Origin: Escherichia coli | GTDB taxonomy: Bacteria > Pseudomonadota > Gammaproteobacteria > Enterobacterales > Enterobacteriaceae | Length of the DNA stretch: 64,000 nucleotides | Reading direction: 5' to 3' (one strand) | Assembly: GCF_003018255.1 (NCBI RefSeq) | Contig: NZ_CP027440.1 | Part shown: one piece after another, positions 2,548 through 4,970 of the stretch | Layout of the letters: every line of letters starts with the position of its first letter | How positions within the stretch are numbered: position 1 is the first letter of the stretch | Position numbers and translations under genes: made by a program | Notes under the pieces: model-generated | What the model was told of the DNA's origin: nothing | Databases searched by the model: none | The model's input: only the letters and a program-made list of their open reading frames with translations

Positions 2548-3522
2548 ATGCAGGCGTTACTTTTAGAACAGCAGGACGGCAAAACTCTCGCATCAGTACA
2601 GACTCTGGACGAAAGTCGCCTGCCGGAAGGCGATGTCACGGTTGATGTTCACTGGTCGAGCCTGAACTACAAAGATGCGCTGGCGATTACCGGTAAGGGA
2701 AAAATCATCCGAAATTTTCCGATGATTCCTGGGATTGATTTTGCCGGAACTGTACGCACCAGCGAAGATCCGCGTTTTCATGCCGGTCAGGAGGTGTTAC
2801 TCACTGGCTGGGGCGTTGGTGAAAACCACTGGGGTGGGCTGGCGGAACAGGCGCGAGTGAAAGGTGACTGGCTGGTTGCCATGCCGCAAGGGCTGGACGC
2901 GCGTAAAGCAATGATTATCGGTACTGCCGGTTTTACCGCCATGCTGTGTGTGATGGCGCTGGAAGATGCCGGTGTTCGCCCGCAGGATGGGGAGGTTGTC
3001 GTGACGGGTGCCAGTGGTGGCGTCGGCAGTACCGCCGTCACGCTGCTGCATAAGTTGGGTTATCAGGTCGTTGCCGTTTCCGGTCGCGAAAGTACCCATG
3101 AATATCTGAAAAGTTTAGGTGCCAGCCGTATTCTTCCTCGCGATGAGTTTGCTGAATCCCGTCCTCTGGAAAAACAAGTCTGGGCTGGGGCAATTGACAC
3201 CGTTGGCGACAAAGTGCTGGCAAAAGTGCTGGCGCAAATGAATTACGGCGGCTGCGTGGCGGCCTGTGGTCTGGCGGGTGGTTTTACTCTGCCAACCACG
3301 GTCATGCCATTTATTCTGCGTAATGTCCGTTTGCAAGGGGTGGATTCAGTAATGACGCCACCAGCACGCCGCGCACAAGCCTGGCAGCGACTGGTCGCCG
3401 ATTTACCGGAATCATTCTATACCCAAGCGGCAAAAGAGATATCTCTGGCAGAGGCACCGAAGTTTGCCGAGGCCATCATTAATAACCAGATCCAGGGTCG
3501 CACGCTGGTGAAGGTTAACTAA
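2548..3522 (+). CDS. acuI: Acrylyl-CoA reductase AcuI (YhdH), MDR-family NADPH oxidoreductase
   Basis: 324-aa ORF; Rossmann motif VVTGASGGVGS; recognised from translation. Confidence 0.93.
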   Translation: MQALLLEQQDGKTLASVQTLDESRLPEGDVTVDVHWSSLNYKDALAITGKGKIIRNFPMIPGIDFAGTVRTSEDPRFHAGQEVLLTGWGVGENHWGGLAEQARVKGDWLVAMPQGLDARKAMIIGTAGFTAMLCVMALEDAGVRPQDGEVVVTGASGGVGSTAVTLLHKLGYQVVAVSGRESTHEYLKSLGASRILPRDEFAESRPLEKQVWAGAIDTVGDKVLAKVLAQMNYGGCVAACGLAGGFTLPTTVMPFILRNVRLQGVDSVMTPPARRAQAWQRLVADLPESFYTQAAKEISLAEAPKFAEAIINNQIQGRTLVKVN

Positions 3523-4189
3523 CCATTTAGCAGGGAATAATAAGAGAGGGAACTCATTTTGAAATCATTATTCAATCGGTTAACGGGAAAAGCGGTTAGC
3601 CGGACAGCTTTCGTCGAACATCTTGGTCATGAAGTTGTACAACATCATCCAAACTGGAAAGTCATGATTTCGACTGACCATAAATTGATGCGCATTGATG
3701 CTCCACCAAACAGCCATTATTGATACGCCTCCGTCGCCTGTTAGGTTTATGGTGTTTTGCCTTGGCGACGCTACGCTTAATCTGTTACTGATTTCTGGTA
3801 CCATGGGGGGAATAATCTGATTTTATTTGATTGCAAATTAACCACTTAAACCTATTGAATGCGGAACATTGTCAGTCGGTTAATTTTGCGTGCTTTAGCA
3901 TTCACATCTTTCCGGACGATGCAGTGAAAATTGCGTAATCCTCAGCAACCGCTGCGTAATGTCGTCTATCTTGTCGCGATCCTGGCATCCCTACATTATT
4001 TGTGGTCTGTGAAGATTATCTCATTGCAGCCCCTCATCTTCGCAGGGCTGGCTTTACAGCTTTTCACCCTACGTTATAAGAAGTTCCGTCGATGATGGCG
4101 CTAATTTCGTGAATTGTGCGGCTTGTTGCAAATTACACGGTGTTGAAGGTTATTTACATGTTAGCTGTTGATTATCTTCCCTGATAAGA

Positions 4190-4499
4190 CCAGTATTTAG
4201 CTGCCAATTGCTACGAAATCGTTATAATGTGCGACCTCGTCCTCCCTGACGCAGTTTTTGCGCTGCGGAAAAGGTGACATTGGCGCAACGAAGGTATATT
4301 TTGTTTTTTGCCGGAGGATAGCAGCAGATCGCTGCACAATGTCCGTCAAGTCTAACATTGACACTCTGGGGCAAAATAGACCGGCGTCCCGGCCTGCTGG
4401 AATTTATCGCTATGCATACAGCTGTCGGGGCATACGCTTTACAGACGGCGGTGAAACGCCTGTCACAATCACACTAAACAAAGAGTACGGAACCCACTC
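4190..4499 (+). promoter_or_regulatory. Putative accBC promoter and long untranslated leader
   Basis: Perfect TATAAT at 4223-4228 about 270 nt upstream of accB ATG; accBC is known to have a long leader; -35 not convincingly identified. Confidence 0.3.
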
Positions 4500-4970
4500 A
4501 TGGATATTCGTAAGATTAAAAAACTGATCGAGCTGGTTGAAGAATCAGGCATCTCCGAACTGGAAATTTCTGAAGGCGAAGAGTCAGTACGCATTAGCCG
4601 TGCAGCTCCTGCCGCAAGTTTCCCTGTGATGCAACAAGCTTACGCTGCACCAATGATGCAGCAGCCAGCTCAATCTAACGCAGCCGCTCCGGCGACCGTT
4701 CCTTCCATGGAAGCGCCAGCAGCAGCGGAAATCAGTGGTCACATCGTACGTTCCCCGATGGTTGGTACTTTCTACCGCACCCCAAGCCCGGACGCAAAAG
4801 CGTTCATCGAAGTGGGTCAGAAAGTCAACGTGGGCGATACCCTGTGCATCGTTGAAGCCATGAAAATGATGAACCAGATCGAAGCGGACAAATCCGGTAC
4901 CGTGAAAGCAATTCTGGTCGAAAGTGGACAACCGGTAGAATTTGACGAGCCGCTGGTCGTCATCGAGTAA
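4500..4970 (+). CDS. accB: Biotin carboxyl carrier protein of acetyl-CoA carboxylase
   Basis: 156-aa ORF; Ala/Pro-rich linker; biotinylation motif EAMKMMN. Confidence 0.97.

Follow-up and report, generated by a model that had tools for sequence, protein, structure and literature searches.

In other Gammaproteobacteria accB and accC are clustered with aroQ, the gene for type II 3-dehydroquinate dehydratase: an intact aroQ (150 codons; Pfam DHquinase_II, PF01220, 5.8e-60) adjoins accB in 69 of the 80 accB loci that we compared (one genome per species, with reference proteins mapped by tblastn), those of Vibrio, Aeromonas and Pasteurellaceae included. Upstream of accB, 46 Enterobacterales loci also carry msrP-msrQ, a methionine sulfoxide reductase system whose intact genes are recognized by Pfam as Oxidored_molyb and Ferric_reduct. 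The order there is csrD(-)-acuI-msrP-msrQ-[aroQ]-accB-accC, with acuI absent in some, and it was seen in Citrobacter, Enterobacter, Kluyvera, Erwinia, Pantoea, Serratia, Yersinia, Pectobacterium, Hafnia, Edwardsiella, and Budvicia. Escherichia coli K-12 has two pseudogenes in the corresponding place, yrdF (b4697) and yrdE (b4646), which a table note of the paper that cloned the region calls by that term (PMC7648144). Here we describe the interval between acuI and accB in a 64,000-nucleotide stretch of E. coli DNA (contig NZ_CP027440.1), referred to as the window. The interval measures 977 bp (3523–4499), as the original prediction had it, from the acuI stop codon (TAA, 3520–3522) to the accB start codon (ATG at 4500), and very probably it is a stack of gene remnants with one working promoter. 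This reading draws on homologies, synteny, the polymorphism pattern, promoter conservation and a published start site. The observation is ordinary and its core already known, the unannotated part being the aroQ relic in the accBC leader. That relic is annotated neither in K-12 nor by the NCBI Prokaryotic Genome Annotation Pipeline (PGAP), and of the 20 papers listed by a literature search on aroQ and accB, three contain both words, none of them about E. coli to judge by the titles.

The part of the interval next to accB holds the following elements, in window coordinates (window position equals the K-12 position in NC_000913.3 minus 3400936).

4167–4235, plus strand: conserved promoter block of the ancestral aroQ-accBC operon, 69 nt, reading GTTGATTATCTTCCCTGATAAGACCAGTATTTAGCTGCCAATTGCTACGAAATCGTTATAATGTGCGAC
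4180–4196, no strand assigned: FadR-box-like CCTGATAAGACCAGTAT (reverse complement ATACTGGTCTTATCAGG), just 5′ of the −35 hexamer and nearly invariant across genera
4201–4206, plus strand: −35 hexamer CTGCCA, from a consensus scan; the −35 region listed with the mapped start is TAGCTGCCA
4223–4228, plus strand: −10 hexamer TATAAT, from the scan, followed by the G+C-rich discriminator GTGCGAC; the −10 listed for the start at −263 is GTTATAAT
4237 (K-12 3405173), plus strand: approximate transcription start, 263 nt 5′ of accB, from the literature
4237–4338, plus strand: former aroQ 5′ untranslated region (5′ UTR), first part of the accBC leader, aligned to the region between promoter and aroQ ATG of aroQ-bearing genera at 67–77% identity
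4339–4477, plus strand: apparent relic of a gutted aroQ, with the start context CACAATG (ATG 4339–4341) and the last 16 codons (4430–4477)
4478–4499, plus strand: aroQ-accB spacer with the accB ribosome-binding region, 22 nt, 100% identical to nine other genera or species (alignment A3)
4500–4970, plus strand: accB, intact, the right border, from the list of open reading frames (ORFs) and matching annotated records

E. coli shares with the aroQ-accB-accC cluster the promoter, the 5′ UTR blocks, the start context, the last 16 codons of aroQ, the spacer and the accB start; it differs in that ~313 nt of aroQ are deleted, no dehydroquinase is possible, and the wreck is the accBC leader only. Identity to Kluyvera and E. 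cloacae is 94% in the promoter, 67–77% in the 5′ UTR, 28–40% in 4339–4429, 94–96% in 4430–4477 and 100% in the spacer, and in a tblastn search residues 136–150 of E. cloacae AroQ matched window 4430–4474 with 14 of 15 identical. The missing ~313 nt lie between the start context and the last 16 codons, which end in TAA at 4475–4477 (alignment A3); the relic's start ATG and its C-terminal codons stand in different frames, and no intact 150-codon ORF is present. Within the 5′ UTR two blocks are invariant, GGTGACA (4273–4279) and GAAGGTATATTTTGTTTTTT (4290–4309), the latter also given as GAAGGTATATTTTGT. The accB ATG stands 264 nt from the promoter block in both E. coli and E. albertii, 260–261 nt from it in Citrobacter, and 575–594 nt from it in most aroQ-bearing genera; C-terminal scraps are all that is left of aroQ in Escherichia, Citrobacter, Superficieibacter, and Phytobacter. 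The 3′ end of aroQ is under no marked nucleotide-level constraint in aroQ-bearing species (third-position entropy 1.01 vs. ~1.25). Judged by these alignments, the leader of accBC, which the original prediction called long, seems to consist of the former aroQ 5′ UTR and, after it, a gutted aroQ gene. The promoter in front of it has been kept far more faithfully. In 40 loci, which range from Escherichia to Yersinia, Serratia, Hafnia, and Edwardsiella, its 69-nt block is found with 14 mismatches or fewer and with TATAAT unchanged; the DNA 5′ of 4167 shows no conservation between genera. The promoter that serves accBC is an ancient one, that of aroQ-accBC, and its conservation extends from Escherichia to Yersinia.

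The remainder of the interval, together with its left border, reads as follows.

2548–3522, plus strand: acuI (yhdH), intact, a 324-aa ORF annotated as acuI in matching E. coli records
3543–3550, plus strand: Shine–Dalgarno-like AGAGAGGG, inherited from a DUF1444-like gene; the same sequence lies 5′ of the intact 276-aa gene in strain SCU-313
3559–3701, plus strand: pseudogene yrdF′, the first 47–48 codons of the 276-aa DUF1444-like gene; equals yrdF b4697, K-12 3404495–3404637
3580–3804, minus strand: spurious 74-codon antisense ORF, spanning the yrdF′/yrdE′ deletion junction and interrupted by a stop in most strains
3702–4104, plus strand: pseudogene yrdE′, msrQ/yedZ from about codon 66 to its end; yrdE b4646 (K-12 3404638–3405031) equals window 3702–4095

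These are essentially the yrdF′ and yrdE′ of K-12, with the same features, and what we add to them is the identity of the parent genes, a DUF1444-like gene of 276 aa and the syntenic msrQ. The original prediction had described a stretch without an accepted gene. This holds insofar as no functional gene is annotated there, but NC_000913.3 does list the two pseudogenes. It had correctly located a plus-strand ORF of 54 codons with a TTG start (3559–3723), the Shine–Dalgarno-like AGAGAGGG 8 nt before that TTG, and a minus-strand ORF of 74 codons (3580–3804), and its caution that quite possibly neither ORF is real was well placed. The suggestion of an unexplained gap perhaps hiding a small gene did not survive: the 54-codon ORF is the annotated stub yrdF′, i.e., the 5′ end of a 276-aa gene, and the rest is an msrQ relic, a promoter and a gutted aroQ. 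All three gene relics had gone unnoticed.

The start of the 54-codon ORF is exactly that of yrdF; the reading frame then continues, out of register, within the next relic until its stop at 3723. In strain SCU-313 (locus L003) an intact 276-aa gene begins at the same TTG, behind the same Shine–Dalgarno sequence and next to the same acuI, and its first residues are identical to yrdF′ at 47 of 47 positions; these first 47 also match locus L096 and E. albertii, which carries a DUF1444-like gene of 271 aa at this position. Window 3400–3699 is 98.7% identical to L003 1501–1800, and the two alleles are colinear over window 3400–3699 and 3803–4600, with 858 bp in SCU-313 (L003 1801–2658) in place of the 103 bp of window 3700–3802. 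The truncation cost the parent gene 229 of its 276 codons. The 858-bp segment is a presence/absence polymorphism, found in 670 of 5426 complete E. coli genomes (~12%). The intact allele has a terminator-like hairpin 3′ of the DUF1444-like gene, which the window allele lacks. Against Pfam DUF1444 (PF07285) the 276-aa protein scores 17.1 bits over residues 29–270 (E = 0.0041), below the gathering cut-off of 23.8, and we therefore call the gene DUF1444-like only, although some PGAP records label its product a “DUF1444 domain-containing protein”. A search of 5.8 billion proteins returned very few relatives. One of these (63% identity; metagenome contig L004, 3898–4731) lies amid the plasmid- or phage-type genes KfrA_N, Aca2_YdiL, and DUF7352, which hints that the family is mobile. 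Another (78% identity, likewise on a metagenome contig) has a gene for an AcuI-like product before it and the Tat-signal start of msrP behind it.

yrdE′ aligns with K-12 msrQ at 74.6% nucleotide identity over 390 nt, from msrQ nucleotide 197 on, and gives a tblastn match to MsrQ residues 101–193. By identity it lies at 73–75% from the functional E. coli msrQ and at 66–69% from the syntenic msrQ of Citrobacter, and it differs from a functional msrPQ (yedYZ) system in lacking the first ~65 codons of msrQ and all of msrP. Frame translations show a frameshift, several in-frame stops, a premature TGA at 4093–4095 and a further TAA at 4102–4104. The latter is the ancestral stop, as the tail FRR*WR* of the relic corresponds to FRQWWR* of syntenic MsrQ proteins. 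yrdE′ is thus homologous to MsrQ/YedZ (Ferric_reduct, PF01794) but has no intact frame, and it is a relic and not a member of that family. PGAP places a YedZ pseudogene at window 3708–4095 in a strain identical to the window; a PGAP-annotated K-12 assembly has nothing there.

Variation within the species sets the two parts of the interval apart. Counted as variable sites per 100 nt among nine E. coli strains, it is distributed as follows.

acuI 3′ end: 3.3
yrdF′: 7.0
yrdE′: 10.7
4105–4166: 1.6
promoter block 4167–4235: 0
5′ UTR: 1.0
4339–4429: 1.1
4430–4499: 0
accB 5′ end: 3.0

The relics appear to drift, and the whole 430 bp 5′ of accB is very quiet. The ~33 differences between the window and K-12 follow the same division: all are scattered substitutions within ~3620–4070, and none occurs in 4071–4520. 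The 1.2 kb around the gap, which matches strain 104 at 100% identity, occurs in 5425 of 5426 complete E. coli genomes. The relic DNA at 3559–4104 is probably dispensable, and the relics presumably have no function of their own.

A history of losses probably accounts for this arrangement. The ancestral enterobacterial order would have been csrD(-)-acuI-msrP-msrQ-aroQ-accB-accC, and in the Escherichia lineage a DUF1444-like gene would have come to lie between acuI and msrP; among the 80 loci, a DUF1444-like gene with a truncated msrQ was found in Escherichia only. In the window allele a single deletion may then have brought msrQ, from about its codon 66 on, up against codon 47–48 of the DUF1444-like gene, taking with it the terminator of the latter, the whole of msrP and the start of msrQ. 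This would have left yrdF′ with its old Shine–Dalgarno sequence and TTG, and yrdE′ as a frameshifted msrQ tail, both presumably drifting at a roughly neutral rate. What is left of msrQ begins at about codon 66 in the window allele and only at about codon 100–120 in the intact-DUF1444 allele and in E. albertii, the latter two also retaining an apparent scrap of the msrP start (judged by eye). Owing to these unequal msrQ remnants neither allele can be derived from the other, and we infer two independent deletions from an acuI-DUF1444-msrP-msrQ ancestor. An older deletion of ~313 nt, also present in Citrobacter, would have gutted aroQ. The aroQ-accBC promoter, with its FadR-like box, −35 hexamer, TATAAT at 4223–4228 and G+C-rich discriminator, is the part still in use, and transcription runs from ~4237 through a leader of ~263 nt in which the former aroQ 5′ UTR is followed by the wreck of aroQ and then by the 22-nt spacer. 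A simple scan of 3400–4600 found no terminator-like site between acuI and the accBC promoter (window 3523–4236), as the deletion removed the terminator of the DUF1444-like gene; transcription of acuI may accordingly read through the relics towards accBC. Such a history accounts for two oddities of E. coli, i.e., a ~1-kb spacer before an essential operon and an accBC leader of ~263 nt. For genome scanning it provides a useful negative, in which a plausible start codon and ribosome-binding site in a long gap of a core region are deletion debris.

Several points weigh against the reading of the interval as remnants plus one promoter. The leader is less variable than the adjoining coding DNA in E. 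coli, so that it may not be a mere fossil. Its middle (4339–4429, ~90 nt) is not recognizably aroQ, with 28–46% identity to other genera; consequently, it is the flanks and the synteny that carry the aroQ assignment. The set of 80 loci includes no Salmonella, E. fergusonii or cryptic clades. The 54-codon ORF is open in nine of nine E. coli strains behind a good ribosome-binding site, and translation of a 54-aa peptide is possible. Li and Cronan reportedly found in 1993, by primer extension, a start ~300 nt upstream, and a second or differently placed start is possible. Finally, the mapped start at −263 was flagged “New” relative to the promoter known in 2009 (PMC2760140).

Among the alternatives, the one that survives best is that the leader (4237–4499) has been exapted as a regulatory RNA, acting either through an attenuator, with a hairpin and U-tract at 4233–4309, or through a 62-codon upstream ORF, and that it could mediate the autoregulation of AccB. 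We consider this unlikely. Among the nine strains only two sites vary across its 263 nt, and all four lineages that lack aroQ have retained the last ~50 nt as well as the 5′ UTR blocks. AccB moreover autoregulates accBC without a DNA-binding motif, according to PMC11602165, which cites James and Cronan (2004). The similarity between E. coli and E. albertii, ~98% over 4339–4499, is less telling than it looks, as it may stem from recombination: accB third positions are also 96% identical. Fold z-scores are ordinary, ranging from +0.4 to −2.1 for single sequences and the entire leader (−0.8 for the 5′ 80 nt, −1.3 for the entire leader). RNAalifold found no consensus structure in 38 Enterobacterales 5′ UTRs and almost none in 18 from Enterobacteriaceae (−3.55 kcal/mol, nine pairs), where only a small hairpin shows some compensatory changes. 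An invariant U-tract stands at 4297–4309, but the stems are weak and vary, and a simple terminator scan finds none there. A Term-seq table that spans −200 to 0 relative to accB lists one weak 3′ end, at −63, which qualifies neither as Rho-dependent (0.93) nor as intrinsic (2.1, below 3); it corresponds to window 4437 (K-12 3405373), where the recognizable 3′ relic of aroQ begins (Adams et al. preprint, supplement file 3).

A small RNA, Ysr190 (Yersinia sRNA 190), has been catalogued from the homologous region of Yersinia and speaks in favor of a leader RNA. The Rfam family matches three Yersinia loci with 96–131 bits (L064 5380–5481, L044 5238–5339, L042 5380–5481), and the match is homologous to window 4203–4302, a stretch beginning in the −35 region and ending in the U-tract of the aroQ 5′ UTR. 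In the window itself, an Rfam scan of 3300–4700 at E ≤ 1 returned nothing but a sub-threshold Ysr190 (RF02764) of 25.3 bits vs. a gathering score of 66. The modeled structure goes undetected in Enterobacteriaceae: a covariance model built on the Yersinia structure finds Yersiniaceae, Hafniaceae, and Pectobacteriaceae, with no match in Enterobacteriaceae at E ≤ 1. The first ~30 positions of the Ysr190 model are promoter DNA, including the −35 region and TATAAT, and the 5′ boundary of the family probably takes in untranscribed DNA.

The upstream-ORF variant starts from the fossil aroQ ATG, which opens an ORF of 62 codons (4339–4527) that overlaps the accB start by 28 nt. This ORF stays open in E. 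albertii by means of two compensating 1-nt indels, but it shrinks to 5–9 codons in Citrobacter and has no well-placed Shine–Dalgarno sequence. Pfam found nothing in the 62-aa product. As a separate observation, the two indels of E. albertii alter nine residues. The likeness of E. coli to E. albertii extends to third positions of accB (96%; window 4500–4970 vs. L008 6001–6471) and falls to 84% in accC and 74% in acuI; a recombination tract over leader and accB, or strong codon constraint, could lie behind it. A pairing of GUGACA (4274–4279) with UGUCAC (4462–4467) was tried as well and dropped, since both copies are invariant and covariation is uninformative; the 5′ copy is altered in Pluralibacter (L040) and Erwinia endophytica (L031), with no compensating change in the 3′ copy of Pluralibacter.

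A broader form of the same idea, to which we give slightly less credence still, is that the gutted aroQ carcass as a whole has been put to use, with the 5′ UTR blocks, the fossil ATG and its 62-codon ORF, and the last ~50 nt forming a cis element that would couple accBC to growth rate and to AccB autoregulation. The blocks at 4167–4235, 4273–4279, 4290–4309, and 4430–4499 are the regions to mutate in studies of AccB autoregulation and of FadR or ppGpp control of accBC.

That TATAAT at 4223–4228 is not the main accBC promoter, and that the principal start lies elsewhere, e.g., near accB or, where older primer extension reportedly placed it, ~50 nt further 5′, we judge to be quite improbable. 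The hexamer is present as originally predicted, and together with CTGCCA at a distance of 16 nt it matches the consensus at 10 of 12 positions with a spacing proper to sigma-70. By itself a perfect hexamer is weak evidence, as 3400–4600 contains four promoter-like sites compared with 1.8 ± 1.2 in shuffled sequences. The more telling features are that the −35, −10 and discriminator are invariant or nearly so in 40 loci of several families, with no conservation between genera 5′ of 4167, that in aroQ-bearing genera the block stands ~100 nt 5′ of aroQ, as expected of an operon promoter, and that Ysr190 RNA of Yersinia maps to the homologous place. The proposal that this TATAAT serves accBC with a long leader is borne out by a published start at −263, mapped by 454 sequencing with seven reads and listed with −35 TAGCTGCCA, −10 GTTATAAT and a 16-nt spacer (Mendoza-Vargas et al. 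2009, PMC2760140 supplement file 3). The same table marks accB as “multiple promoters: yes” and gives a second start at −40, with one read vs. the seven at −263 (PMC2760140). accB is absent from the supplementary files consulted for the Cappable-seq, Kim 2012 and Shigella start-site studies.

Just 5′ of the −35 hexamer, CCTGATAAGACCAGTAT is presumably a FadR box, given its resemblance to the FadR consensus. The assignment of 4180–4196 to FadR is thus putative and drawn from the sequence. FadR control of accBC itself appears as a second-hand citation in PMC11602165.

That the 54-codon ORF (3559–3723) is a functional small-protein gene made or kept by the truncation we regard as very unlikely. 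Besides its open frame and its Shine–Dalgarno-like AGAGAGGG, it may profit from acuI: no terminator-like site lies between the two, so co-transcription is probable. Yet the ORF is already annotated as the pseudogene yrdF, its first 47 codons are the start of a gene still whole in E. albertii and in 12% of E. coli genomes, and the 54-codon form exists only as a deletion product. Its last 6–7 codons are out-of-frame msrQ relic and differ by strain (APPNSHY, TPLNSYY, TPLNSHY). A codon-substitution check on the nine strains gave no sign of purifying selection, with two synonymous and six non-synonymous variable codons among the first 47, and the 7.0 variable sites per 100 nt exceed the ~3 of the flanking genes (only nine strains). 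Pfam has no match to the product. The names yrdF, yrdE, and acuI and the start-coordinate prefix 340449 are absent from the supplement of one ribosome-profiling study of small ORFs, a weak negative. That the antisense ORF is a real gene can be dismissed almost outright: it starts with ATG and runs for 74 codons in the window, but an in-frame stop breaks it in seven of nine E. coli strains, K-12 included, it straddles the junction at ~3701, so it was absent before the deletion, and the corresponding antisense ORF of the intact allele has a different N-terminal half.

The working msrPQ of E. coli lies elsewhere, between hiuH and zinT, and its MsrQ has a longer and different C-terminal tail. This functional MsrQ (L088 3550–3619) ends in LRSLFNRLRKQVHNKLSV, unlike the FRQWWR of syntenic orthologues, and shares the residues SLFNRL with the N-terminus of the DUF1444-like protein (MKSLFNRLTGK; window 3562–3585). 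By blastn the 3′ end of E. coli msrQ showed no significant DNA similarity to the yrdF start, whereas a six-residue match was reached by only 38 of 200,000 tail shuffles, and the common SLFNRL may be a trace of the relocation of msrPQ.

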